In this document: positions 883 to 14,810 of the stretch, in pieces
Layout of the letters: the number at the start of each line of letters is the position of its first letter
How positions within the stretch are numbered: position 1 is the stretch's first letter
The notes under the pieces: generated by a model
Told to the model about the DNA's origin: nothing
Database searches by the model: none
The model's input: the letters and a program-made list of their open reading frames with translations, nothing else
Virus record (IMG/VR): IMGVR_UViG_3300020039_000013
Reading direction: 5' to 3' (one strand)
DNA length: 52,347 nucleotides
Source: a virus
Made by a program: the position numbers and the translations under genes

Positions 883-1025
883 TGGCGGTCACAGATATGC
901 CGTATGAGCGGAGGCTATACTGCTACGAGCTGGAGAAGCGTCACATTCTCTTTGGGCCGCACGGTCTTTCCAGCGCGGAGGTAGACAAAGCACTGGCGGC
1001 GCTGCGTAACAAGTGGAGGATTTGA
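882..1025 (+). CDS. Small hypothetical protein (47 aa)
   Basis: ATG overlaps the upstream TAA. The ORF ends 1 nt before the next ATG (1027), the packing typical of phage early genes. Confidence 0.4.
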   Translation: MAVTDMPYERRLYCYELEKRHILFGPHGLSSAEVDKALAALRNKWRI

Positions 1026-1026
1026 G

Positions 1027-1341
1027 ATGTGGTATCACTGTGCGGACTGCGGCCACGTCTTTGAGGACGGCGAGCAAAGGGTAATACGCAACATCCTGGA
1101 CTACATTGACGGCAAGCCTTTGACGGAATTGTATTACGTCTGCCCGGAATGCGGCAGGCAATACGAAACGGCTGGCACATGCCGAAAGTGCGGAGGAGCA
1201 TTTGCCGAGAACGCTTTGGTCGCGGGAATCTATTGCGAGGAATGCCTGGAGCAGCTAATGACGGAAGAAAACATAAAGCTCTATATCCAAGAGGATTTGG
1301 AGGCTTTTGCGGAATGGCTGATCGAGCAGGAGGGCCAATAA
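1027..1341 (+). CDS. Zinc-ribbon hypothetical protein
   Basis: ORF track. Three CxxC pairs: CADCG, CPECG, CRKCG. Confidence 0.6.
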   Translation: MWYHCADCGHVFEDGEQRVIRNILDYIDGKPLTELYYVCPECGRQYETAGTCRKCGGAFAENALVAGIYCEECLEQLMTEENIKLYIQEDLEAFAEWLIEQEGQ

Positions 1342-1536
1342 GTGCTCAGTTGCGAGGGTTTCAAGATGTTTCGCGGCGAAGCGGAAATTGATACGGCCAA
1401 AGGAGCAATACGGTTTTCGGGAGTGTGGCTTTACCACCCAGAAAAGCGAATGTGGTACATCAACGATTGCCCGGTTTTCCCCTTCGGCACAAGTTTTCCC
1501 GAAGAAGATTTTTTAAAAATCCTGTCGGAAGCATAA
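1342..1536 (+). CDS. Hypothetical protein
   Basis: ORF track (GTG start), abutting the upstream stop. Confidence 0.5.
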   Translation: MLSCEGFKMFRGEAEIDTAKGAIRFSGVWLYHPEKRMWYINDCPVFPFGTSFPEEDFLKILSEA

Positions 1537-1627
1537 AAAAGAGCCGTCCCGGTGCGGCAACACCAAAGACGGCAAAGGTAAAAAATCCTATGTGTGCATT
1601 ATAGCACGGTTATGGAGGAGTTGCAAG

Positions 1628-1882
1628 GTGAACAAAAAGAGAAAGAAAACAATGGAAATGAGCGTGGCCGCAAGACGTTCGGCGAAACTGCTTATCGCGT
1701 TTCTGCTGGGTCAGGCGGTACAACTGATCGTGCATTCCGTGGCGCTCAATCTGTGGGAGTACAGGCAGATACCATTCTGCGCGTCGGCGGGTTTTTTGGT
1801 GGCTGTGGCCGTTTTTATGGGAATCAGGATTGCCGTAAAAGAGGACGGCAGCGGCCGGGACGATATGAATTACTATGACTAA
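1628..1882 (+). CDS. Membrane protein, two predicted TM helices
   Basis: In-frame GTG 1628 follows GGAGGAG. Hydrophobic stretches LLIAFLLGQAVQLIV and AGFLVAVAVFMGI. Confidence 0.5.
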   Translation: MNKKRKKTMEMSVAARRSAKLLIAFLLGQAVQLIVHSVALNLWEYRQIPFCASAGFLVAVAVFMGIRIAVKEDGSGRDDMNYYD

Positions 1883-2228
1883 TCAAAGCAGGGTGTGCAA
1901 GGATCGCGTTGTATGTGTTGGCGATCAAAAAATGACCCTTTATGATTGGGCGAAGAAAAACGGAACCAGCCCGGAAACGGCCAACAAACGATGGCGGCGC
2001 GGTGAAAGAGACCCGTTTAAACTCATCGGCAAAAACCAGGCGAAAAAGAAAGCAACGACTAAAGCTATGATCCCGGTGGATATAAGCTGGCAGACGCTGG
2101 AATATCTGGAGCAAACGGCGTGGTGCCGAAAAGGGATGCCGGATGAGTGGGAAATTGCGTGCGATCTCGCCGGTATTCCGAGGTATCACGCGGGCTATCT
2201 GCAATGGCTGATGGAGGCGGCGACATGA
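1875..2228 (+). CDS. Hypothetical protein
   Basis: ORF track, overlapping neighbours by a few nt. Confidence 0.55.
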   Translation: MTNQSRVCKDRVVCVGDQKMTLYDWAKKNGTSPETANKRWRRGERDPFKLIGKNQAKKKATTKAMIPVDISWQTLEYLEQTAWCRKGMPDEWEIACDLAGIPRYHAGYLQWLMEAAT

Positions 2229-2721: not shown

Positions 2722-3552
2722 ATGAAAGGCTATAAAGTTTTCAACCCGGATTTTACTTGCAGAGGATTCCAGTATGAGGTAGGAAAGACCTACAAGCACA
2801 ACGGGCCTCTTTCTATCTGCCACAGTGGATTCCACTTCTGCCGCAAGGTCGCCGATTGCTTCGGTTACTACGCCTTTGACCCCCGCAACAAAGTGGCAGA
2901 AATCGAGGCAACCGGACTTGTGGAGAGCAAGGAGGATAAGAGCGTCACAGATGAGATCACCATCGTCCGGGAAATCTCCTGGGAGGAAATGCTGACCCTC
3001 GCCAATACCGGAACCGCCTGCACTGGCCTTAATAACACCGGGGACATGAACACCGGGAACTGGAACACCGGGAACTGGAACACCGGGGACTGGAACACCG
3101 GGGACATGAACACCGGGAACAGGAACACCGGGAACAGGAACACCGGGGACATGAACACCGGGAACAGGAACACCGGGAACTGGAACACCGGGGACTGGAA
3201 CACCGGCAACTGGAACACCGGCTTTTTCTCCACCATTACTCCCACGGTTACGCTTTTTGAAAAGCCCACCGACATGACAGCTGCCGAGGTCTGCGAGATT
3301 CTCGGTATCCGAATTCTCAACTGGAATTATGAAAATAATTGGTGGATTTTCAGCCGGAGCATGACAGAGGAAGAAAAATCCGCGCACCCGGAGCACGAGA
3401 CCACGGGAGGCTATTCGAAATCCATTCCATTCAAAGATGCCTGTAAGCTGATGTGGGATAACCTTACCGATAACGAAAAGGCAGCGGTCAAGGCCATCCC
3501 AAACTTTGATGCGGATATCTTCTGCAAAATCACCGGGATCAAGGTGGAATAA
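2722..3552 (+). CDS. Pentapeptide-repeat protein. Its conserved N-terminal domain is paralogous to the one in 51762..52347 (DUF7666-like, provisional).
   Basis: AAGGAG RBS lies before ATG 2722. N-domain: MKGYKVFNPDFTCRGFQYEVGKTYK...CHSGFHFC. It is followed by 13 NTG(D/N)(W/M/R) pentapeptides. Confidence 0.8.
   Translation: MKGYKVFNPDFTCRGFQYEVGKTYKHNGPLSICHSGFHFCRKVADCFGYYAFDPRNKVAEIEATGLVESKEDKSVTDEITIVREISWEEMLTLANTGTACTGLNNTGDMNTGNWNTGNWNTGDWNTGDMNTGNRNTGNRNTGDMNTGNRNTGNWNTGDWNTGNWNTGFFSTITPTVTLFEKPTDMTAAEVCEILGIRILNWNYENNWWIFSRSMTEEEKSAHPEHETTGGYSKSIPFKDACKLMWDNLTDNEKAAVKAIPNFDADIFCKITGIKVE
3034..3213 (+). repeat. 15-nt tandem repeat, 12 near-identical units encoding NTG[DN][WMR], with degenerate units on both flanks (3004-3228)
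   Basis: aacaccggg(g/a)ac(atg/tgg/agg) is repeated in phase with the CDS. Confidence 0.95.
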
Positions 3553-3971
3553 TGGACTGCGCGGAACTTGTAAATCGTCTGCGAAACATCGCAGACGGTG
3601 GCATATACGAAAAGTGCGACGGATGCAAGTACGAGGAAGACTATCCCGATTGCGTTGGGTGTACTCACAAAGCATTTTACGAAGCCGCCGATGCCATAGA
3701 AGCCCTACAAAAGCAAATAGAAGCCTTTGACGATTCCCATGTCTGCCGAATCATCGAGAAAGACGGCGTTACGGAACTGTCGGTTGTGCCGGGGTGGATT
3801 CCCGTTACGGAGCGGCTGCCGGAAGCTGGTACGCGGGTGCTCGTTTATGCGGACAGTCATATTGACTTTGGAATTCTTGAAGAAGACGGGTACTGGACAG
3901 ACTGGCTTTATTACCCAATCCGACCAACTCATTGGATGCCACTGCCCACACCGCCGAAGGAGGAAACATGA
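3552..3971 (+). CDS. DUF551-type phage protein
   Basis: C-terminal WIPVTERLPEAGTRVLVY...THWMPLPTPP matches the DUF551 signature. The N-terminus has CxxC pairs. Confidence 0.7.
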   Translation: MDCAELVNRLRNIADGGIYEKCDGCKYEEDYPDCVGCTHKAFYEAADAIEALQKQIEAFDDSHVCRIIEKDGVTELSVVPGWIPVTERLPEAGTRVLVYADSHIDFGILEEDGYWTDWLYYPIRPTHWMPLPTPPKEET

Positions 3972-4630
3972 TGTTTGAAGAATATGAAGAATACTTCTAC
4001 GAGCCATCTGAGGCCGACACAATCATCGACGAGGCCAAGGAAAAGCTGAACGATCTGTTGACCGAAGAGGTGAAGCAGACCATGAAACAGGCGAGTGAAG
4101 CCAAGCAATCTCTGGAGAAGCTACAGAAAGAAATACGAGAGGCGGAGTACCGGCTTGGAAATCTGAAGTTAGAACACCAGAGGGAAGAGAAAAAGTGGGA
4201 AAACCTTGACCAGTATCATATGCCCCGGCAGTACATCAAGCGGCTTGTGGAGGCGGTCGCCGGTGATTTCGCCCCCGGTGACACCGTGTACGCTCTTGCG
4301 GTCGATTTTCAAAATGAAGAGTGCCCGTTATGCCACGGGAATAAAGAGGTTGAGTGCAAAATTGCGGATAGCCAAGAAGTTTTGTCCATTAACTGTCCCA
4401 CCTGTAAAGGTCGTGGATATCGGTCAAAAAGAATTGATTATATCAAAGAACGCAAGGTGTCGGAAGTCCACCTAAAGTTGTGCTTTGATGACTACCGAGT
4501 TTGCTATTGGAGTAGTAATTGTATTTATTTGGATGGCCGTGATAGCAGCACGGACATTAAAGACATTTTCCACACAAAAGAAGAGGCTGAAAAGGCTTTG
4601 GCAGAACGAGAGCCGGAGGAGAAAGCATGA
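3968..4630 (+). CDS. Coiled-coil protein with a DnaJ-like CxxCxG zinc finger
   Basis: GGAGGA RBS lies before ATG 3968. Motifs CPLCHGNKEVEC and CPTCKGRGY. Confidence 0.55.
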   Translation: MMFEEYEEYFYEPSEADTIIDEAKEKLNDLLTEEVKQTMKQASEAKQSLEKLQKEIREAEYRLGNLKLEHQREEKKWENLDQYHMPRQYIKRLVEAVAGDFAPGDTVYALAVDFQNEECPLCHGNKEVECKIADSQEVLSINCPTCKGRGYRSKRIDYIKERKVSEVHLKLCFDDYRVCYWSSNCIYLDGRDSSTDIKDIFHTKEEAEKALAEREPEEKA

Positions 4631-6883: not shown

Positions 6884-7279
6884 ATGGAACTTAAACCTTG
6901 CCCGTTCTGCGGGAACGAAGTCCATCTTAAAGCGATGCCGTTATGGAGACCGGGAGGCCACGGCTATTATGGATGTTATGAGTACATAATCCGATGCGAT
7001 AACATCGAGTGCGGATGCCGTCTCGCCAACCTTGGAAAGAACAACACGATATATTCCACCACGGAAGAAGCGGAGAGAAACGCCGCCGAAGCATGGAACA
7101 GGAGGGCTGGTGACGCTCAGCCCGTCCGGCATGGGCGGTGGGAAGCATCGTACATGGACGATGCTCTTGTGTGTTCCGAGTGTGTTAACTACTGGATTTA
7201 CAAAGGTTACCAATACGATTATCACCACTGCCCCAACTGCGGCGCAAAGATGGATGGAGGGGCAAACCCTGATTGTTGA
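6884..7279 (+). CDS. Lar-family restriction-alleviation-like protein with an extra C-terminal zinc ribbon
   Basis: MELKPCPFCGNEVHL...TEEAERNAAEAWNRRA matches the Lar family signature. C-terminal CSEC...CPNCG. Confidence 0.65.
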   Translation: MELKPCPFCGNEVHLKAMPLWRPGGHGYYGCYEYIIRCDNIECGCRLANLGKNNTIYSTTEEAERNAAEAWNRRAGDAQPVRHGRWEASYMDDALVCSECVNYWIYKGYQYDYHHCPNCGAKMDGGANPDC

Positions 7280-7838
7280 CTATGCCGAACAGATAAAGCA
7301 GTCCGTCACCATGCCGGAAGTAGCGGCGATGTACGGTCTGACCGTCAACCGTTCGCACAAGGCGATCTGTCCATTCCATGAAGATAAAAAGCCGTCCATG
7401 CACGTATACCCCGGTCGGAGAGGTTACTTCTGCTATGTCTGCGGCAAAGGCGGGGATGTAATCACATTTACAGAGCGTCTGTTCGGTCTGACATTTCAGG
7501 ATGCCATGAAAAAACTGAATGGGGACTTCCGGCTTGGACTTCCCATCGGCGCGGAACTGGACGAGGACGCACGGAAAGAAGCTGCCCGGATTGCCTACCA
7601 ACGGCGCAAAGAACAAGAACGCAAGAAGAAACGCCACGAAGCGCTTTTGACGGCCTATCACAGCGCACTTGATGAGTGGATAAGGTTGGATAGCGTGATC
7701 CGTGAAGAAGCCCCGGAAACGCCTTTTGACGGCTTTACAGAGGCATACGCGGACGCGGTGAAACACATAGACTTTGCCGGGTACAAGTTGGACGCGGCGG
7801 AGAGGGAGTTATACGAATTTGAGAAAGGTATTGCATGA
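7254..7838 (+). CDS. CHC2 (primase-type) zinc-finger protein
   Basis: AICPFHEDKKPSMHVYPGRRGYFCYVCGKGGDVITF is a CHC2 zinc finger. The start is chosen at in-frame ATG 7254, which is uncertain. Confidence 0.7.
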   Translation: MEGQTLIVDYAEQIKQSVTMPEVAAMYGLTVNRSHKAICPFHEDKKPSMHVYPGRRGYFCYVCGKGGDVITFTERLFGLTFQDAMKKLNGDFRLGLPIGAELDEDARKEAARIAYQRRKEQERKKKRHEALLTAYHSALDEWIRLDSVIREEAPETPFDGFTEAYADAVKHIDFAGYKLDAAERELYEFEKGIA

Positions 7839-10040
7839 AACATTACGGCGATATAACAAAACTGTCCGGCTATGATCTGCCCGTAGTGGATGTAATAACA
7901 GGCGGTTCGCCCTGTCAGGACTTGTCCGTGGCGGGGAAACGCGCTGGAATGGCAGGAGAGCGAAGCGGACTGTTCATGGAGCAGATACGCATTGTGAAGG
8001 AGATGAGGGAACGTGATAGAGCAAGTGGACGGACAGGTAGGTTTGTTCGACCTCGATACATGGTCTGGGAAAACGTACCCGGAGCATTCAGCTGTAACGG
8101 AGGCAAAGACTTTCAAGCCGTCCTTGAAGAAATCGTCAAAATCGCAGAACCGGAATGCCCCGATTTGTCTGATGCTGTCCAGGGGGGGGGGTGGACAAAA
8201 TCGGGATGTTTGTACTCCGACGTGGGGACATGGAGCATTGCTTGGCGAGTACACGACGCGCAGTTTTGGGGAGTCCCCCAGCGAAGAAAACGTATCGCGC
8301 TTGTCGCAGATTTTGGAGGACTGTCCGCTCCCGAAATACTCTTTGAGCGCAAAGGCTTGTCAGGGGATTTTGAACCGAGCAGAACGGCGGGGGAAGGAAC
8401 TGCCCCCGGAGCTGAAAGCAGCACTGATAGCACAAGCGAACCTGTCAGAGACGGATGGGTTGAACAAGAAGGAACCTACTACGATCCCGGATTCAGAGAT
8501 GACGATACCATCTGTCTGCAAGGAAACGGAATCGACCGAGCCGACACAGCCGGATGCAACGGTCGCGGATGGCGTAGGGGGGGAGTTACACCCTTAACAC
8601 AATCGACCGACCCGCAGTCATGTCCTTCCAAGAAAGAGCCGGTAAACCAGGGGGGGGGCAAAGGAATCCTCATTCAGCATGAACACACCGGAGCCTTGTC
8701 AACAATCAATAACCAATCCGTCTTTGACGGCAGGATTTGATGGGTCAGCGGGGAGCACAGCCGGAAGCATTGGTTTTGCGGAAGAACAGGCGATAACTGC
8801 CAAATCAACCGGGGGGGTATTGCCTCATACGCCGTTGACTGTCGGAACGGAACGGAGAACGAATGTGTAAACGGGACGCTACAAGCGAAAGACCAAGGGA
8901 TCAGTTTGAATCTGAACAACGTAGTCCGGGTATCCTTGTCCTAAACGATCAGGGGGGCAGTGATGGCAGTCAGCTATGACGTGACCGGGACTCTCCGGGC
9001 AGAAATGGGCGGTCATCCTCCATTAGTGCTTGTGTATGAAAGCCACGGACAAGATGCACGGTATCGACCACTCGGCGAGACTTGCGAAACCATATCCGCA
9101 AAATATGGATTAGGGGGGTAATGTTCCCTTAGTGTTGAAATATGAAGAAACTATACAACAAAGCAAGGAATGACCAATGGGAAGAGGATACCGTGTGCAT
9201 GACAGTTATTGCCCGATACGGAACAGGGGGGCAACGTGCCGATTGTTATTGAATACTGCGTAAACGATGACCCCACTCCGAAAGTCAACGGGGGGGCGTA
9301 TGCTACACACTTTCCAGAACGGGACATATCCCCGTTGTCGTGATAGGAGAACATGACATATCAGAAAGTAACAGGGACGTTGAATCCCGGTGCGCATCCG
9401 GGCAGCTACAACGGGCAAGACGCATACAACGATATGCTGGTGATTGATGAAGTACAAAATGATTTCTTGCATAGGGGGGGGTGAAACCTCGCAGACGTTA
9501 GATGCAAGCTATTTTAAAGGTCCAGGAGCAAGAAACGGAAAGGAACGTGAGGTTTTGGCTGTGGAGCCAACATACATGAGTGACCGCAAAGGACACAATG
9601 GCATTTCCGAAAATGGTACGGCGACAACGCTGACAGCACAGGAAAAGGAACGACCGATCATAGGAACAAGTATCGTTCGGCGGCTAACGCCGGATGAATG
9701 TGCTTCCCTCCAAGGTTTCCCGCGTGATTGGTGCAATATCGGGGACTGGACAGACACCAAGGGAAAGAAACACAAGGACGCTGACAGTCCGAAGTATAAA
9801 GCCTACGGCAACAGCATTGCGGTTGGATATGCAAACGGACGAAGCGGTTTCTGGTGCTGGATGGCACGACGGATTTGTGCTCAATATGAACGGCAAATCA
9901 CAATCGGGAGCCTGTTTGATGGAATCGGAGGTTTCCCGCTGGCCTTTGAATCCTGCGGTGCAAAAGCTGTCTGGGCGTCGGAGATTGAAGAATTTCCCAT
10001 AGCTGTAACAAAATACCATTTCCCGGAGGTGGAAATTTGA
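7835..10040 (+). pseudogene. DNA (cytosine-5) methyltransferase with permuted motif order (IV, VI, VIII, TRD modules, IX, X, then I, II) and multiple frame breaks
   Basis: PCQ 7910-7918, ENV 8069-8077, QRRKR 8279-8293 (frame 2). TRD-type peptide modules lie in changing frames over 8500-9480. RRLTPDECASLQGFP starts at 9678, GNSIAV 9807-9824, LFDGIGG 9912-9932. Stop at 10040. Confidence 0.7.
8013..8597 (+). CDS. Out-of-frame ORF embedded in the MTase gene; its product resembles a family seen in Firmicutes ICEs/prophages (...SRLSQILE...YSLSAKACQGILNRAERRGKELP...)
   Basis: 194-codon ORF in frame 0, fully inside the frame-2 MTase ORF 7835..8740. Family recognition is from memory only. Confidence 0.4.
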   Translation: MIEQVDGQVGLFDLDTWSGKTYPEHSAVTEAKTFKPSLKKSSKSQNRNAPICLMLSRGGGGQNRDVCTPTWGHGALLGEYTTRSFGESPSEENVSRLSQILEDCPLPKYSLSAKACQGILNRAERRGKELPPELKAALIAQANLSETDGLNKKEPTTIPDSEMTIPSVCKETESTEPTQPDATVADGVGGELHP

Positions 10041-10828
10041 CCGAAAAAGAATACCGCGCACACCCCGCCATAAGCCGGTCAGAGCTATGGCACATGAACG
10101 AAAGCCCGGAAAAGTTCAAATACTACCGGGAGAACCCGCCAGAGCCTACACCGGCTCTACTGTTCGGGCAGGTGGTGCACAAGCTAATGCTCCAGCCGGA
10201 AACATTCGATGATGACTTTGCCGTGGCCCCGGATGTTGACCGTCGCACGAAGGACGGCAGGGAAGCGTACAACGCCTTTCTGATGGCCTCTGATGGCAAA
10301 GGTATAGTTACACCCGATATGTACGAAACGGCGCAGAGCATGGCACAGAGAGCCTTGCAGGAGCCATTCGTAGCGAAGTTGCTGAACGGACAGAAAGAAG
10401 TGCCGTTTTTCTGGACGGACGAAGATACCGGGATTGATTGCAAGTGCCGCCTTGACTGTCTAAACGAGATAGGGGAAAACCTTATCATCGTGGACTACAA
10501 GAGCTGCACAGACGCAAGCAATGACGGATTCATGCGGGACGCTATCAAGTACGGGTATCATTTCCAGTCTGCTATGTACTCCGAGGGCGTACAGCGAAAC
10601 ACGGGACGCAAGCCGCTTTTCGTGTTCATAGCCCAGGAGAAAACCGAGCCTTACAGCATCAACATCTTTCAGGCAGATGAAGCGTTTGTACAGTACGGAC
10701 GGGACATTATGCGGGAATACCTTGGAATCTACAAATACTGCACGGAAACCGGGGACTTTTACGGATTTTTAGGGAAGTCCGGCATAATTAACACGCTATC
10801 GCTCCCGGCTTGGGCGGCGAAGGAATAG
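10037..10828 (+). CDS. RecE-like PD-(D/E)XK exonuclease (DUF3799/exonuclease VIII C-terminal domain type)
   Basis: TTG start after GGAGGTGG. Motifs FGQVVHKLMLQPETF, KCRLDCL, IVDYKSC, YHFQSAMY, FIAQEKTEPY. Confidence 0.75.
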   Translation: MTEKEYRAHPAISRSELWHMNESPEKFKYYRENPPEPTPALLFGQVVHKLMLQPETFDDDFAVAPDVDRRTKDGREAYNAFLMASDGKGIVTPDMYETAQSMAQRALQEPFVAKLLNGQKEVPFFWTDEDTGIDCKCRLDCLNEIGENLIIVDYKSCTDASNDGFMRDAIKYGYHFQSAMYSEGVQRNTGRKPLFVFIAQEKTEPYSINIFQADEAFVQYGRDIMREYLGIYKYCTETGDFYGFLGKSGIINTLSLPAWAAKE

Positions 10829-10850
10829 GTTATTGGTGCTCAATTAGGAG

Positions 10851-11084
10851 GTGAACAACATTAAAAAGGCAGGATTTGTATCCATAGATGACGGCATAGA
10901 TGTATATAAAAACCATCTGAAAAAGCATTTTGCAAAAATACTTCCGCTAGAAAAGTGGGAAAGTGTTTGCACGTTCTTTGACAAAATGTCTGATGAAGAT
11001 TTTATACAGTTTTGTATGCAATGTGGAAAAGATGAAAAGAAATTCCGTTGGGGACGAAAGGGAAAGAGAGATTCACCTCGTTAA
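10851..11084 (+). CDS. Hypothetical protein in an AT-rich segment; start uncertain
   Basis: ORF track. GC is locally lower than in the neighbours. Confidence 0.4.
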   Translation: MNNIKKAGFVSIDDGIDVYKNHLKKHFAKILPLEKWESVCTFFDKMSDEDFIQFCMQCGKDEKKFRWGRKGKRDSPR

Positions 11085-11120
11085 AATTCAAAAATCCGAA
11101 AACGACAAGGAGGACTAACA

Positions 11121-11972
11121 ATGTCAGAAGAACTCACGGTACAGGAGAGCCAGCAGATGGCGGTTGCGCCGAATATGCCGAACAATGGTATTATGGCGCA
11201 CATGGAAAACATCAATCAAGGCACGGTTGCGATTGAGGCAAGCCGAGCGATTGCGGAGGCGCAGGGAAAGCTTGTCATCGCAAAGCGTTTTCCACGTGAT
11301 GAGATTAGCAGCTATGCCAAGGCCATGGAAGCCTGTCAGCGTCCGTCAATGGCAAGTAAGGCATTCTATTCATTCCCCCGCGCTGGCGGGAAGGTGGAAG
11401 GGCCTACTATCAGATTTGCCGAAGAGCTTGCCCGGTGCTGGGGCAATATAGACTACGGCATTAAGGAACTCTCGCAGGACGATGGCAAGTCCGAAATGCA
11501 AGCCTACGCATGGGATTTGGAAACTAACGCGCAGAGCATTCAGAATTTCACCAATCCGCACATGAGGGAAGTCAACGGTAAAATGAAGTCTCTGACAAGT
11601 CAGAGGGACATTTACGAAAACAATGCTAACATGGCTACCCGGCGTTTGCGCTCCCGGATTCTCGCTATCCTTCCCGCGTGGTTTGTGGAGGATGCTATTG
11701 CAGAGTGCAAGAAAACCCTCGCGGGGAACAATAGCGAACCGCTAATTGACCGAGTGAAGAAGATGGTGGTTCAGTTTAGCAAGTTGGGCGTATCGCAGGA
11801 GCAGATTGAAACCCGGTTGAAGCGAAAAATCGACACTATGACCGCTGATGACCTGGTGGACTACATCGGAATCTATAACGCTATTAAGCAGGGAGAGAGC
11901 AAGGCGGCTGAATGGTTTAGCGGTCAGACCGACACAAGCGATCTGACGGCGGCACTCAAGGAGGAAAAGTAG
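11121..11972 (+). CDS. Single-strand annealing protein (RecT/Red-beta-superfamily-like recombinase; family not resolved)
   Basis: Position between the RecE-like exonuclease and SSB. Conserved-looking core FYSFPRAGGKVEGPTIRFAEELARCWGNIDYG...AYAWDLETN. Confidence 0.6.
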   Translation: MSEELTVQESQQMAVAPNMPNNGIMAHMENINQGTVAIEASRAIAEAQGKLVIAKRFPRDEISSYAKAMEACQRPSMASKAFYSFPRAGGKVEGPTIRFAEELARCWGNIDYGIKELSQDDGKSEMQAYAWDLETNAQSIQNFTNPHMREVNGKMKSLTSQRDIYENNANMATRRLRSRILAILPAWFVEDAIAECKKTLAGNNSEPLIDRVKKMVVQFSKLGVSQEQIETRLKRKIDTMTADDLVDYIGIYNAIKQGESKAAEWFSGQTDTSDLTAALKEEK

Positions 11973-12167
11973 TTGTCAAAGCTCACCAAAAACAAGCTGC
12001 TGAAAGCCATGTTATATTTGAGGGACGAGATTGACCGCTTGCAGGACGCCGTTGAACGATACGACGGTAAGGACAGCAAGGAATGGCGGGAAATCTTGGA
12101 GATTGACCGGATTTGCTTTGAGGCTTGCAAGATGGCAGCAAATAATAGTATGAAGGAGGAAAAATAA
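11973..12167 (+). CDS. Hypothetical protein
   Basis: ORF track (TTG start), abuts both neighbours. Confidence 0.45.
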   Translation: MSKLTKNKLLKAMLYLRDEIDRLQDAVERYDGKDSKEWREILEIDRICFEACKMAANNSMKEEK

Positions 12168-12569
12168 ATGAGCCTGAACCACATTGTTCTGATGGGCCGC
12201 ATTGCTCGTGACCCGGAACTTCGCAAAACGCCTAGTGATGTTTCAGTGGTATCGTTCACCATTGCCGTTGAACGGGACTACAAACAGGGTGACGAGAAAG
12301 TGACCGATTGGATTGACTGTACCGCATGGCGTGGCACGGCGGACTTCATTTCCCGGAACTTTTCTAAGGGGCGAATGATTTGCGTCGAAGGTGCGCTCAA
12401 TTCCCGCAAATGGCAGGATAAAGAGGGGAACAACCGCATTTCGTGGTTTGTCCAGGTATCGAACGTCTACTTTGCCGACAGCAAGAAGGACGCAACTACG
12501 CAGAATCAGACCGCCAGCGCGCCGCAGTTTGAGGAAGCGGAGCAGACAGAGGGCGATCTGCCGTTCTAA
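12168..12569 (+). CDS. ssb: Single-stranded DNA-binding protein
   Basis: MSLNHIVLMGRIARDPELRKT...OB-fold pattern and an acidic C-terminal tip ending DLPF. Confidence 0.9.
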   Translation: MSLNHIVLMGRIARDPELRKTPSDVSVVSFTIAVERDYKQGDEKVTDWIDCTAWRGTADFISRNFSKGRMICVEGALNSRKWQDKEGNNRISWFVQVSNVYFADSKKDATTQNQTASAPQFEEAEQTEGDLPF

Positions 12570-12603
12570 AAATTTACAAAAACAGGAGGAAATAAAAGTG
12601 GAA

Positions 12604-12744
12604 ATGTTTAACGGAATGTTTGGGAAGATTGCAAGCGGAATGTGCCGTTTGTCCATGACCGGGGGTATTGCGGTCAAAACCTCCAACGGGTATAAAACCT
12701 ATAGACCGAAATGCAAAACAAAAATGGAAACGGAATTTCCGTAG
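12604..12744 (+). pseudogene. Truncated N-terminal remnant of a conserved phage protein (MFNGMFGKIASGMCRLSMTGGIAVKTSNGYKTY...)
   Basis: AGGAGG RBS. The conserved N-terminus is followed after about 33 aa by unrelated residues and a stop, where the MTase-derived segment begins. Confidence 0.5.
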
Positions 12745-13430
12745 GTACAGCACATACGCTAAATTCTGTTGACCGCCACGCGGTTGTGTACGATGCGAGA
12801 GGAAACGGAGATGGGGTAATAAGCCCCACCATAACGGGAGATCACCAGAACCGGGTAACGGATTACACGGCCTTGTGCGGAGGAAACGGCCAGTTGAACA
12901 ATATGAGTATGAGTGAACAGGCAAACACGTTTGATACAATGCACGACCAGCAAGCGGTTATGGTAGCCGCCGTAGATTGCAGAAACCTGTATGAATGCCC
13001 AGAAATCAGCAACGCGCTTAAAGCAAAAGCAAACTGTGATTGCCGGGCAGATTCGGAAACTTACCCAATACAAAACAACATAGTCCGTCGACTTACGCCC
13101 ATTGAATGTGAACGTCTGCAAGGATTCCCAGACGGATGGACTGATATAGGAAAATGGATGGACACAAAAGGGAAGAAGCACAAAGAAGCCGATTTGCCCC
13201 GGTACAAGGCGTTAGGAAACAGTATCGCCCTTCCGTTCTGGCAATACCTGGCGCGTCGTATCTGCGCTCAGTACGAACGGGACATTACGATGGGGAGCCT
13301 GTTTGACGGCATTGGTGGTTTCCCGCTTGTATTTGAGCGGTGCGGTGCTAAAGCTGTGTGGGCATCCGAAATCGAAGAGTTCCCTATTGCGGTCACGAAA
13401 CGGCATTTCCCAGAGGATGAAAGTACATGA
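12711..13430 (+). pseudogene. C5-MTase fragment: TRD modules, motif IX and motif X fused to motifs I and II. Motifs IV-VIII are absent.
   Basis: AHTLNSVDRHAVV, PTITGDHQNRVTDYTA, GNGQLNNMSMSEQANTFDTMHDQQAVMV, RRLTPIECERLQGFP, GNSIALP (13215-), LFDGIGG (13299-13319), ASEIEEF. Stop at 13430. Confidence 0.65.
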
Positions 13431-13891
13431 CAAACCCAAAATTCTACTTCGACAGCAGAGAACGTAAGAACGACCACATCAAGGACTACTTTGACCGGCA
13501 CGGGATAGAGTGGGAGGTAAAGGCGCTAAGTTGCGGGGATTACCAATTAGCAGACAATCCAAATCTGGTAATAGAGAGGAAAATGTCGCTTGAGGAAATC
13601 TCCCGCAACCTCCTGAATGCCAAGGACAGCAGCCGCTTTTGGCGGGAAGTCCGCAGAGCGCACGAACATGGAATACAGCTTGTGGTTCTGATCGAAAGCG
13701 GACGGACGGTAAAGACCATCAACGAGGTTGTAAAGTGGAAAAGCCACTATTCTCCGGTAACCGGCAGACGGTTGATTGACGAAATGATACGGTGCGAGAT
13801 GGCGTATGGCGTCCAGTGGGCTTTCTGTGACCGGCGTTCCACGGCAAGGCGGATTATTGAGATTTTGAGCGAAGGAGGGGACGGGAAATAG
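13427..13891 (+). CDS. ERCC4/Mus81-type nuclease domain protein (possible junction resolvase)
   Basis: GDY...VIERKMSLEEI matches the GDxn-ERKxxxD ERCC4 motif. Confidence 0.55.
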   Translation: MTNPKFYFDSRERKNDHIKDYFDRHGIEWEVKALSCGDYQLADNPNLVIERKMSLEEISRNLLNAKDSSRFWREVRRAHEHGIQLVVLIESGRTVKTINEVVKWKSHYSPVTGRRLIDEMIRCEMAYGVQWAFCDRRSTARRIIEILSEGGDGK

Positions 13892-13923
13892 AGAGCAATA
13901 AACAATCGTGTGAAATCCTTGGT

Positions 13924-14505
13924 ATGGCAAAACGCGATATCGCCGCTCTGCTTTGGCTTGGAGGGCAATGCGATTATTGCAAATACGGGAAAAAGGACGA
14001 ATATAGCGGCGCTAATCGTTGGCTTTGCTCCAGGAAAGGCGGCGCTCCTATCATGCTGATAAAGAACTATTCCCCGCAAGTGCTCAAAGCCAATATGCGC
14101 ATTGTCAACGCTACGGAATATGCACTTGTTCTTTATCGCAACAAGCTCCCGAAATTCAACAATGACGGTCAGATGGTGTTCAACTGGTTTTACTGGAAAC
14201 GGGACGGAAAAGAAATTCCGAAGATTCACCCAACGCAGAAAAGCATCGGAACACTGAAAGAACTGATCCGTATTTTCACCGACCCCGGCGACGTTGTGAT
14301 AGACCCATGCGCCGGAAGCGGAAGTTCTCTCCGGGCTGCTTATGAGTTGGGACGCAACAGCTACGGCTTTGAAATCGACAGGAGAATCTTTCAGCGAGCG
14401 CGGGAAGAAATGCTGGAGCCGATTAAAAATCAAGTGGCAATATTCGATGTACAATCAGCGGGATACGACTTCGCCGGTAACCATAAACTGGAGGGATTTT
14501 TTTGA
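13924..14505 (+). CDS. N6/N4 DNA methyltransferase C-terminal portion (beta-class order) lacking the DPPY catalytic motif
   Basis: HPTQKS and VIDPCAGSGSS (AdoMet motif I) are present. No (D/N/S)PP(Y/F) in the ORF or immediately upstream. Confidence 0.6.
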   Translation: MAKRDIAALLWLGGQCDYCKYGKKDEYSGANRWLCSRKGGAPIMLIKNYSPQVLKANMRIVNATEYALVLYRNKLPKFNNDGQMVFNWFYWKRDGKEIPKIHPTQKSIGTLKELIRIFTDPGDVVIDPCAGSGSSLRAAYELGRNSYGFEIDRRIFQRAREEMLEPIKNQVAIFDVQSAGYDFAGNHKLEGFF

Positions 14506-14810
14506 TAATCGCCGTAGACTTTGACGGCACTCTATGCGCGGAGTGCTGGCCGGACATAGGCAGACCGAACGAAGCGCTGATAGCGTGGCTGAAAGAGCAG
14601 AAACGCGCCGGGGCCGAGCTGATACTGTGGACGCTCCGGGAGGACGGCGATCTGGACGAGGCCGTTTTCTGGTGCAAAGAGCGCGGCCTTGTGTTCGACG
14701 CGGTAAACGACAACCTGGAACGGATGAAACAGCAGTACGGCAACAATCCGAGAAAAGTGCACGCCGACGTGTACATTGACGACCGGAATACACTGGTGGA
14801 GAAATTCTGA
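14502..14810 (+). CDS. HAD-superfamily-like small hydrolase
   Basis: TTG start. N-terminal IIAVDFDGTLC (DxDGT nucleophile motif) and C-terminal YIDDRN. Confidence 0.5.
   Translation: MIIAVDFDGTLCAECWPDIGRPNEALIAWLKEQKRAGAELILWTLREDGDLDEAVFWCKERGLVFDAVNDNLERMKQQYGNNPRKVHADVYIDDRNTLVEKF

Follow-up and report, generated by a model that had tools for sequence, protein, structure and literature searches.

The 52,347-nucleotide stretch of viral DNA held as IMG/VR record IMGVR_UViG_3300020039_000013 (hereafter the window) carries the parts of a cytosine-C5 DNA methyltransferase (C5-MTase) in which the conserved motifs do not follow the usual order. Its segment 9678-10040, which lies wholly inside an open reading frame (ORF) called here C1, is probably the normal C-terminus in a C5-MTase family that is circularly permuted by nature and belongs to phages and prophages of Clostridia, and for the architecture and the family assignment as such our confidence is high. 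All C5-MTase motifs (PF00145 / TIGR00675) are present: III, IV, VI and VIII in the ORF starting at 7835 (ORF A), and IX, X, I and II in the ORFs that start at 9444 (C1) and 12711 (C2). In terms of the Pfam profile PF00145, positions 46-130 map to ORF A, positions 222-324 map to both C-terminal ORFs and positions 1-45 come last, and the canonical colinear I-to-X order in one chain is not found. The original prediction had placed IX-X fused in frame to I-II at the end of ORFs 9444..10040 and 12711..13430, with which both the motif coordinates and PF00145 agree, and the nucleotide strings it quoted are indeed found at 9909 and 13296. The genomic order that it gave, IV-VI-VIII-TRD-IX-X-I-II (TRD, target recognition domain), holds as an order, except that the gene starts with motif III rather than IV, the break lying between II and III. 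The X-to-I junction, ARRICAQYERQITIGSLFDGIGGF, lies within one ORF in the window, the stretch of C1 after GNSIAV reading FWCWMARRICAQYERQITIGSLFDGIGGFPL...ASEIEEFPIAVTKYHFPEVEI-stop, and ORF A, C1 and C2 are each intact, with every catalytic motif kept.

The position of the break is given by both ends of the permuted genes. ORF A begins MKHYGDITKL..GGSPCQ, at a place where canonical relatives are uninterrupted (..FPEVKHLGD.. or ..FPDMKHYGD..), as in ..SEIESFPIRVTTKRMPEVKHLGDVSEI.. of the Streptococcus phage Javan105, ..KRLPDMKHYGDVSKL.. of locus L068 and ..IRFPEMRHVGDITKL.. of locus L125; the earlier idea that ORF A starts with the residues that come after HFPE in canonical enzymes is thus upheld by relatives that read straight across. 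Among 228 fetched proteins beginning with M-x-H-x-GDI the start is MKH in 209, and the permuted genes end at ..FPE followed by 0-20 residues. Starting from the native Met of FP-x-MKH-x-GDI, the family has the motif order III-IV-VI-VIII-TRDs-IX-X-I-II, and its intact members share the signature M-K-H-x-GDI ... PCQ ... ENV ... QRRxR ... TRDs ... IX ... X ... FDGIGGF ... SEIE ... FPE-stop. The native-Met start and the ..FPE end therefore place the cut between motifs II and III. At the new joint, the helix of motif X runs directly into motif I (..ARRICAQYER-x-x-T-[M/L]-G-SLFDG..), followed by SEIEEFP and ..FPE. Two other ways of relating the HFPE and MKH ends were rejected: no intein- or intron-like sequence links them and both ends have unrelated neighbours, and a circular permutation of the contig itself is ruled out by both ends being internal to the window, with differing flanks.

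The family behind this arrangement is large. With ORF 9444-10040 as query, 7577 matching proteins were obtained, and the best 120 of them are all 150-300 aa long and cover 49-100% of the ORF (at least 62% in 119 of the 120). All 20 C1 homologues whose sequences were read stop a few residues past motif II, and 8 share the M-x-K-M-I-S-C start. With residues 1-247 of ORF A as query, 8000 proteins were retrieved; 13 of the 14 homologues read start at M-[KRIL]-H-x-GDI, the other one (P0190) being N-terminally truncated. Moreover, in P0144, P0168 and P0210 a single frame passes through PCQ, ENV, QRRKR, TRDs, IX, X, FDGIGGF and SEIE to ..FP-stop, and with P0144 as query the intact single-chain members became far more numerous, at 379-743 aa (379-630 aa for P0241-P0344); one intact single-chain member is found on 50 contigs, an NCBI record among them. 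PCQ precedes FDGIGGF in 125 of the fetched proteins, and the reverse order was found in none. In an alignment of 47 intact homologues none of the catalytic residues varies (P26 C27 Q28, E80 N81, Q149 R150 R151 R153, F342 D343 G344 I345 G346 G347 and E364). Each homologue has about 2-9 modules resembling TRDs (T-L / GGN-x-P-x-V signatures), and their number and order vary among proteins of 379-743 aa.

At least 597 related loci occur in IMG/VR, and GTDB genomes have at least 582, which belong almost exclusively to Clostridia (Oscillospiraceae, Lachnospiraceae, Acutalibacter, Anaerotruncus and others); the permuted family is widespread in gut-associated Clostridia phages. A set of 77 loci on phage contigs and 80 in bacterial genomes was classed by the frames and stops of tblastn matches. 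The phage contigs hold 43 single-ORF permuted genes, 10 pairs of overlapping ORFs, 15 fragmented loci (this window included) and 9 canonical I-to-X genes, and the bacterial genomes hold 12, 4, 7 and 51 of these classes, respectively, plus four loci with 'A only', one Type-H-like locus (IX-X-I-...-VIII) and one without a III-VIII match. A neighbour-joining tree built on III-VIII groups the permuted genes in two large pure clades, of 49 and 24, and hundreds of loci whose flanks are unrelated have the start Met and the stop after FPE in common; the permuted arrangement is therefore inherited and stable. Conservation of the IX-X-I-II fusion and of the MKH start in related genomes, proposed in advance as a check, is what these hundreds of loci display, and they do not bear out the opposite outcome, a standard gene in the relatives with a unique rearrangement here. 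At the nucleotide level, a megablast search of positions 7000-14600 against INPHARED returned only a 69-nt match and no close phage relative. In seven loci (L041, L043, L044, L052, L053, L064 and L078) the tblastn match to III-VIII begins only with residue 15 or 28 of the query, some 60-85 nt downstream of where the locus match starts (3501 versus 3586 in L078), and in L051 (3262-3347) residues 1-27 and 28-175 lie in different frames; one more frame change, or else a short insertion close to motif IV, could account for this.

The tolerance of the C5-MTase fold to circular permutation is a textbook example, and the topology described here had already been reached in the laboratory. Circular permutants of M.MpeI and M.SssI belonging to ten permutation classes were built by Slaska-Kiss et al. 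in 2018, and the highest activity by a wide margin was that of the 'Type B' permutant, whose N-terminus lies between motifs II and III and which came near to wild type for M.MpeI; in addition, the fragments [62-279]+[280-61] complemented (PMC5944983). The REBASE search of 2018 yielded 27 permuted C5-MTases from nature; in each of them the cut is in the variable region (BssHII-like), and none is of Type B, an absence noted as puzzling and for which a handicap in S-adenosylmethionine (SAM) binding was suggested (PMC5944983). The window and its relatives share with the engineered Type B the N-terminus between II and III and the joining of X to I, and the engineered fragments are divided in the same way as ORF A plus C1 or C2. 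All ten motifs in one polypeptide are found in the 43 and 12 single-ORF loci, not in the window. The engineered enzymes are single-TRD, CG-specific laboratory constructs, whereas the family is natural, phage-borne and multi-TRD, with a direct junction free of any added linker. The natural Type B permutation is, in this regard, a new natural variant of a well-known kind of enzyme, and a natural family with the topology that performed best in the laboratory resolves the puzzle of its seeming absence from nature.

Other rearranged or divided C5-MTases resemble the family only in part. The Type H enzymes (M.BssHII, M.Alw26I, M2.Eco31I, M.Esp3I and M2.BsaI) also have IX-X before I through an X-to-I fusion, but their break is in the variable region (TRD/IX-X-I-...-VIII) and not between II and III; this order does not occur in the window, and among the relatives L036 and L139 alone show it. 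The plant enzyme DRM2 is a natural C5-MTase with rearranged motifs (VI-X before I-V), a likeness to the family here, and differs in being eukaryotic, with its break between V and VI and a single TRD. M.AquI (alpha/beta) and M.EcoHK31I are naturally split and require two polypeptides for activity, with the canonical motif order, unlike the present case. No paper on the family was found in the literature on natural Type B enzymes, phase-variable phage C5-MTases, multispecific methyltransferases of Clostridia prophages or overlapping methyltransferase genes, and PHROGs holds pieces of it as 'DNA methyltransferase' (e.g. phrog_16427) with no recognition of the topology.

A structural rationale can be proposed for the permuted chain. 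The N- and C-termini lie close together in solved C5-MTase structures, and joining them and opening the surface loop between II and III would rebuild the same Rossmann-type catalytic domain. The AlphaFold model of the single-chain member P0241 (predicted TM-score, pTM, of 0.69) has most of III-VIII and X-I-II at confidence values (pLDDT) of 75-95, and its best matches in the PDB are M.HhaI, M.MpeI, M.HaeIII and DNMT1, with low TM-scores, as is to be expected of a sequential aligner that meets a permuted chain.

In the window itself the gene is in pieces. Positions 7835-10040 are not one reading frame: the methyltransferase-like reading shifts frame about 12 times, 8 of them at G6-G9 runs, the last in-register stretch before the changes being ..CNGRGWRRGG, and from 8584 on ORF A is out of register with the methyltransferase modules. 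The TRD modules follow each other in alternating frames over about 0.9 kb (8577-9481), mostly parted by G6-G10 tracts. They were defined by hand, the frame being the coordinate modulo 3 of the first codon base, as mapping the array by tblastn with the fetched proteins is confounded by the many database proteins that are mis-framed translations. Modules with homologues match TRD modules of intact members, and the differences fall mainly on third positions of each module's own frame, because of which the modules are considered real TRD-coding units; no homologue of modules 9117-9170 and 9181-9231 was found among the fetched loci. Segments 8816-8954, 9117-9228 and 9295-9476 are closed by stops in every frame, and frame changes at G runs alone open no path free of stops between 7835 and 10040. 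Chance does not account for the G tracts: nine of the 11 runs of at least six G in the 52-kb window lie within 8182-9481, and Gly-Gly pairs are encoded by GGGGGG in 8 of 15 cases in the methyltransferase segments versus 0 of 31 in the other genes of the window. The independent contig L003, whose III-VIII protein is 87% identical, is scrambled in a similar manner and has ten G runs. An alternative frame over the module SFQERAGKPGGGKGILIQHEHTGALSTINNQSV (window 8649-8723, frame 0) is open in P0123, P0125, P0361 and L003, where it (..GGAKESSFSMNTPEPCQQSITNPS..) leads into the next TRD module; a change of tract length would then skip one module and not terminate translation.

The two C-terminal units have a long common history. 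Over 119 aligned codons of IX-X-I-II, C1 and C2 share 91 identical residues and 68% nucleotide identity, and their differences are distributed 16/21/77 over the three codon positions, with a nonsynonymous divergence (dN) of 0.19 and a saturated synonymous divergence (dS). Since the synonymous sites are saturated, the two ends do not come from a recent duplication; judged by their codons, they are old paralogues kept by purifying selection and not recent repeats, in agreement with the original view of diverged paralogs. On the other hand, the suggestion that the copies are direct repeats bracketing the recombination module between them finds no support: with 68% identity and a longest exact match of 14 nt, they are implausible as a substrate for homologous recombination and are rejected as recombination repeats.

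The G tracts are a property of the family and vary between close relatives. Runs of at least six G are about 10 times denser inside the methyltransferase genes than in the flanks, with 0.62 versus 0.063 per kb for single-chain genes and 1.50 versus 0.107 per kb for multi-frame genes. L080 and L081 are 99.9% identical over 5385 aligned nt, with 3 mismatches, and their sole two indels are G7/G8 differences inside the methyltransferase; L053 (G6, single-chain) and L078 (G7, two-ORF) are separated by that one indel over 2378 nt. With flanks identical to those of L016, the G7 of L077 fuses the TRD array to the frame of III-VIII (..SYAVRIRGG-CDGGGKGALVQ..), and the G8 of L016 fuses the same array to the embedded +1 frame, described below (..LLMQSESGGG-CDGGGKGALVQ..). 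FP_Toutatis and Lelie, two cultured phages of Faecalibacterium, share 98.7% identity across 1605 nt, their sole indel being G9 versus G14 in a tract after motif VI (L002 3321 versus L166 1821) that is homologous to the G10 of the window, and their chimeric ORFs differ. As judged from these comparisons, the G tracts are unstable on a short evolutionary time and determine the joining of frames; like phase-variable genes with simple sequence repeats (SSR), the family has coding homopolymer tracts whose length sets the frame. Such variation in the sequences suggests phase-variable expression or specificity, and reversible switching within a population may occur. Coding homopolymer G tracts also set the reading frame in the mod genes of phasevarions and in the poly-G genes of Campylobacter phages; in comparison with these, the family here has up to ten tracts per gene, located at module borders, and its tract variation is that seen between genomes.

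From this material we consider a split enzyme, formed by one catalytic fragment and two alternative specificity-plus-cofactor fragments, as the most likely state of the gene in the window. The pieces are the III-VIII ORF, the TRD modules in alternating frames and the two TRD-IX-X-I-II ORFs; if the phage methylates at all, the single III-VIII fragment would complement either TRD-IX-X-I-II fragment, each with its own specificity, and the length of the hypermutable G tracts would decide which frames, and hence which modules, get joined. That the split enzyme is active in this phage is put forward only tentatively. Several points weigh against these readings. The TRD region of the P0241 model is poor (pLDDT below 35), the methyltransferase activity of the permuted enzyme is a prediction from sequence, model and engineered analogues, and the complementation of the engineered fragments was partial, and failed or was very weak for M.SssI (PMC5944983). 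To these are added the three segments closed in all frames and the lack of an obvious Shine-Dalgarno sequence before C2. As for the G tracts, differences between genomes show instability and not regulated phase variation, and some differences in tract length may be sequencing errors in metagenome assemblies. Finally, the array could be a partly or wholly decaying remnant instead of a working split enzyme.

This last possibility, a real family whose methyltransferase pieces in this phage are a non-functional pseudogene array, is the best of the alternatives, albeit unlikely. It would fit the lack of any single-chain path, the short modules 9117-9170 and 9181-9231 that have no homologue among the fetched loci, the missing Shine-Dalgarno sequence of C2, and a further methyltransferase-like ORF (13924-14505) that also has an N-terminal part unmatched by its family profile. 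Against it stand the intact III-VIII ORF, C1 and C2 with every catalytic motif conserved, the mainly third-position differences between C1 and C2, the recurrence in other contigs of the boundaries of C1 (M-x-K-MISC...HFPE), and G tracts that are maintained, not decayed. Clearly less probable is a recoding process, in which slippage of the RNA polymerase or ribosomal frameshifting at the G runs would yield a mix of full-length isoforms from one genotype. The frame changes do lie at homopolymers, and alternative frames over some modules are open in several relatives (..KPGG-ARESSFSMNTPEPCQ..); however, tract lengths differ between near-identical genomes, hence variation does take place at the DNA level, slippage cannot bypass segments closed in all frames, and known slippage sites are mostly runs of A or U.

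More improbable still is a sequencing artefact, by which the frame changes over 8577-9481 would be homopolymer errors and the real gene one ORF of 735 codons from 7835 to 10040. In its favour, 8 of the roughly 12 frame changes coincide with G6-G9 runs, and P0122, P0125 and P0137 are in frame across some of the same junctions (..GWRRGGSYTLNTIDRPAV..). Nevertheless, homopolymer errors alone cannot explain the structure, because no choice of frame at the G tracts gives a continuous chain: besides the three closed segments, four frame changes are off G runs. Moreover, the window has 52 A runs and 29 T runs of 6-8, yet ORFs of 503-875 codons are open elsewhere; the independent contig L003 is scrambled likewise; and the cultured phages differ by five G. 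A genome-specific breakage, in which a head-to-tail pair of canonical methyltransferases was recently broken by the recombination module and other DNA and left its ends as debris, is hardly credible: a tandem in-frame duplication would create the X-to-I fusion, one-ORF forms with the order IX-X-I-II-III-IV-VI-VIII exist in the same clade (L036, L139) and C2 abuts a small, maybe truncated ORF that ends inside it, but the same Met and FPE stop in hundreds of loci with unrelated flanks, the large clades of permuted genes and the synonymous saturation of the two copies speak against it, and the duplication accounts for the origin of the family and not for the state of this genome, the breakage being largely refuted by the intact permuted homologues.

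An X-to-I fusion is the product expected of an in-frame tandem duplication. In evolutionary terms the X-to-I junction likely arose by a head-to-tail fusion, which does not describe the immediate condition of this genome. Of the two explanations originally offered, the rearranged or split enzyme is favoured by the intact permuted homologues and the array later broken by insertions is not. L036 (ORF 3252-4475) and L139, of the same clade, have TRD-IX-X-I-II-III-IV-VI-VIII in one ORF, a BssHII-like order, and look like the other way of trimming a tandem duplication, or a duplication intermediate. Canonical, Type B and Type-H-like topologies coexist in one subfamily, as the permutation-by-duplication model predicts.

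A second coding layer is embedded in the III-VIII region. An ORF in the +1 frame relative to the methyltransferase (altN), with an SD-like (Shine-Dalgarno) AAGGAG 10 nt upstream of its GTG, reads ..LFDLDTWSGKTYPEHS...SFGESPSEENVSRLSQILEDCPLPKYSLSAKACQGILNRAERRGKELPPELKAAL.. and includes a conserved helical hairpin, KYSLSAKACQGILNRAERRGKELPPELKAALIAQ, at 8334-8435. Its matches amount to 3008 protein clusters (868 at E<1e-10) and lie nearly always at the N-terminus of the cluster, and the long matches that were read (P0370, P0377, P0384, P0463 and P0470) have altN, TRDs, IX, X, I and II in one frame. In two-ORF loci altN is the N-terminus of the altN-TRD-IX-X-I-II protein, and 14 loci consist of a III-VIII ORF of about 205-250 aa overlapped by such an ORF, a layout that, like ORF A plus C1 or C2 in the window, is compatible with a split enzyme. 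The +1 ORF is open in 148 of 148 loci, always over at least 130 codons (median 158), with an ATG start at a conserved place in 120 of the 148 and an SD-like motif before it in 107. Across the overlap in 62 loci there are 5 stops in the +1 frame versus 279 in the +2 frame, and codon identity at identical residues is 0.60-0.66 in the altN overlap versus 0.40-0.42 outside, synonymous change in the host frame being suppressed there.

Canonical genes have altN as well: it occurs in 79 of the 80 loci from bacteria, and phage P1 dmt, Vibrio phage CP-T1 gp12 and Streptococcus phage Javan105 each have it in their +1 frame. The C5 half of P1 Dmt, the Javan105 methyltransferase and CP-T1 gp12 belong to the same subfamily (38-50% identity in III-VIII) and share with the family here the junction FP-x-[MV]-KH-x-GD and the embedded +1 ORF; they differ in their I-to-X order and in having few or no G tracts. 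Between the window and P1 the alignment scores are 117 for the main frame, 128 for the +1 frame and 35 for the +2 frame, and between P1 and Javan105 they are 112, 126 and 31; in such very distant pairs the +1-frame score equals or exceeds that of the main frame, and no stops interrupt it. The conservation of altN as a by-product of the methyltransferase frame is ruled out by these scores and by a +2 frame full of stops. Altogether, these data are evidence for altN as a real coding frame, conserved across this C5-MTase subfamily, with a predicted product. A conceptual precedent is found in the beta chain of M.EcoHK31I, encoded inside alpha in another frame (PMC2836561); that chain carries motif IX, whereas altN, lying over VI-VIII, has no recognisable methyltransferase motif. 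The altN product has no family in Pfam, PHROGs or NCBIfam; its AlphaFold model is mostly of low confidence, the helical hairpin (residues about 105-147) alone being confident, and a Foldseek search of the model against the PDB gave nothing below E=1.9. If translated, altN would be among the most widely conserved overlapping genes in tailed phages, and it is unannotated in phage P1.

It is possible, and we propose it with reserve, that these elements work jointly as a layered device composed of a natural Type B multi-TRD C5-MTase, a poly-G switch and an ancient embedded altN gene. The poly-G tracts at module borders would switch between single-chain, two-chain (III-VIII plus altN-TRD-IX-X-I-II), off or alternative-specificity states, which would provide the phage population with bet-hedged methylation patterns, and the altN product (about 150 codons) would be an unrecognised partner of the methyltransferase: an accessory subunit, a regulator, or a protection against methyl-dependent restriction. 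The Bacillus phage enzymes M.SPRI, M.phi3TI, M.rho11sI and M.H2I are orphan C5-MTases with tandem TRDs between VIII and IX, thought to protect the phage against several restriction systems, and differ from the family here in their canonical I-to-X order, 3-4 TRDs and absence of poly-G tracts. The family, in which the TRD modules reach about nine, looks like multispecific anti-restriction methylation taken to an extreme, and the frame-joining G tracts raise the idea of a phase-variable methylation specificity in gut phages. The family would also be a source of ready-made sequences for split or targeted methyltransferase designs. Gene callers split these loci into fragments of 150-300 aa called 'methyltransferase' or 'hypothetical', and recognising the architecture would improve the annotation of thousands of gut phage contigs.

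Table 1. Positions of the methyltransferase parts, the TRD modules and G tracts, altN and the intervening genes (window coordinates unless another locus is named)
Feature	Position	Strand	Description
ORF A	7835..8740	+	301 aa, N-terminal part of the permuted C5-MTase
ORF A motif III	7844-7864		YGDITKL
ORF A motif IV	7901-7918		GGSPCQ
ORF A motif VI	8069-8083		ENVPG
ORF A motif VIII	8279-8293		QRRKR
ORF A after motif VIII			linker, then first TRD module (ICLQGNGIDRADTAGCNGRGW)
altN (predicted)	8013..8597	+	194 codons, GTG start, +1 frame relative to the methyltransferase, over motifs VI-VIII
altN in L001	2811-3215		
altN in L164 (phage P1 dmt)	1612-2100		
altN in L165 (CP-T1 gp12)	961-1419		
G10 tract	8182..8191	+	after motif VI, inside the methyltransferase and altN frames, both in register through it
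G7 tract	8577		
G9 tract	8650		
G7 tract	8811		
G6 tract	8952		
G6 tract	9113		
G6 tract	9226		
G7 tract	9290		
G8 tract	9474		
TRD module	8584-8655		frame 1
TRD module	8657-8725		frame 2
TRD module	8724-8816		frame 0
TRD module	8816-8932		frame 2
TRD module	8957-9118		frame 2
TRD module	9117-9170		frame 0
TRD module	9181-9231		frame 1
TRD module	9230-9295		frame 2
TRD module	9295-9342		frame 1
TRD module	9353-9481		frame 2
ORF C1	9447..10040	+	ATG at 9447; TTG at 9444 listed as ORF start
C1 TRD module	9480-9665		GETSQTLD...TATTLTAQEKERP
C1 motif IX	9678-9722		RRLTPDECASLQGFP
C1 motif X	9807-9824		GNSIAV
C1 X helix	9849-9893		
C1 motif I	9909-9941		FWCWMARRICAQYER-QITIG-SLFDGIGGFPL
C1 motif II	9975-9998		ASEIEEFP; then HFPEVEI-stop
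Recombination module	10037..12569	+	between C1 and C2; context, outside the methyltransferase
DUF3799/PD-(D/E)XK exonuclease	10037-10828	+	
phrog_3657 protein	11121-11972	+	
SSB (single-stranded DNA-binding protein)	12168-12569	+	
ORF C2	12711..13430	+	239 aa, second stand-alone TRD-IX-X-I-II unit
C2 motif IX	13086-13130		
C2 motif X	13215-13232		
C2 motif I	13296-13328		
C2 motif II	13362-13385		then HFPEDEST-stop

The surroundings of the two C-terminal ORFs are given in Table 1, where the stop of C1 overlaps the start of the exonuclease gene at 10037. C2 has about four TRD modules (...AHTLNSVDRHAV; YDARGNGDGVISPTITGDHQNRVTDYTAL; ...), is matched almost end to end by phrog_16427 (profile length 235) and has no III-VIII part upstream. 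Its start falls inside a small ORF (+), given as 12605-12744 or as 12584-12744 (MFNGMFGKIASGMCRLSMTGGIAVKTSNGYKTY...), which has a strong AGGAGG ribosome-binding site and ends within C2; this may mark the point at which recombination brought in the second TRD-IX-X-I-II unit. Further downstream, ORF 13924-14505 (+; 193 aa) contains DPCAGSGSS and matches only the C-terminal part of the N6/N4 methyltransferase profile PF01555 (positions 144-219 of 221), its N-terminal 90 residues matching nothing; perhaps this gene cluster contains here a further methyltransferase that was truncated or rearranged.

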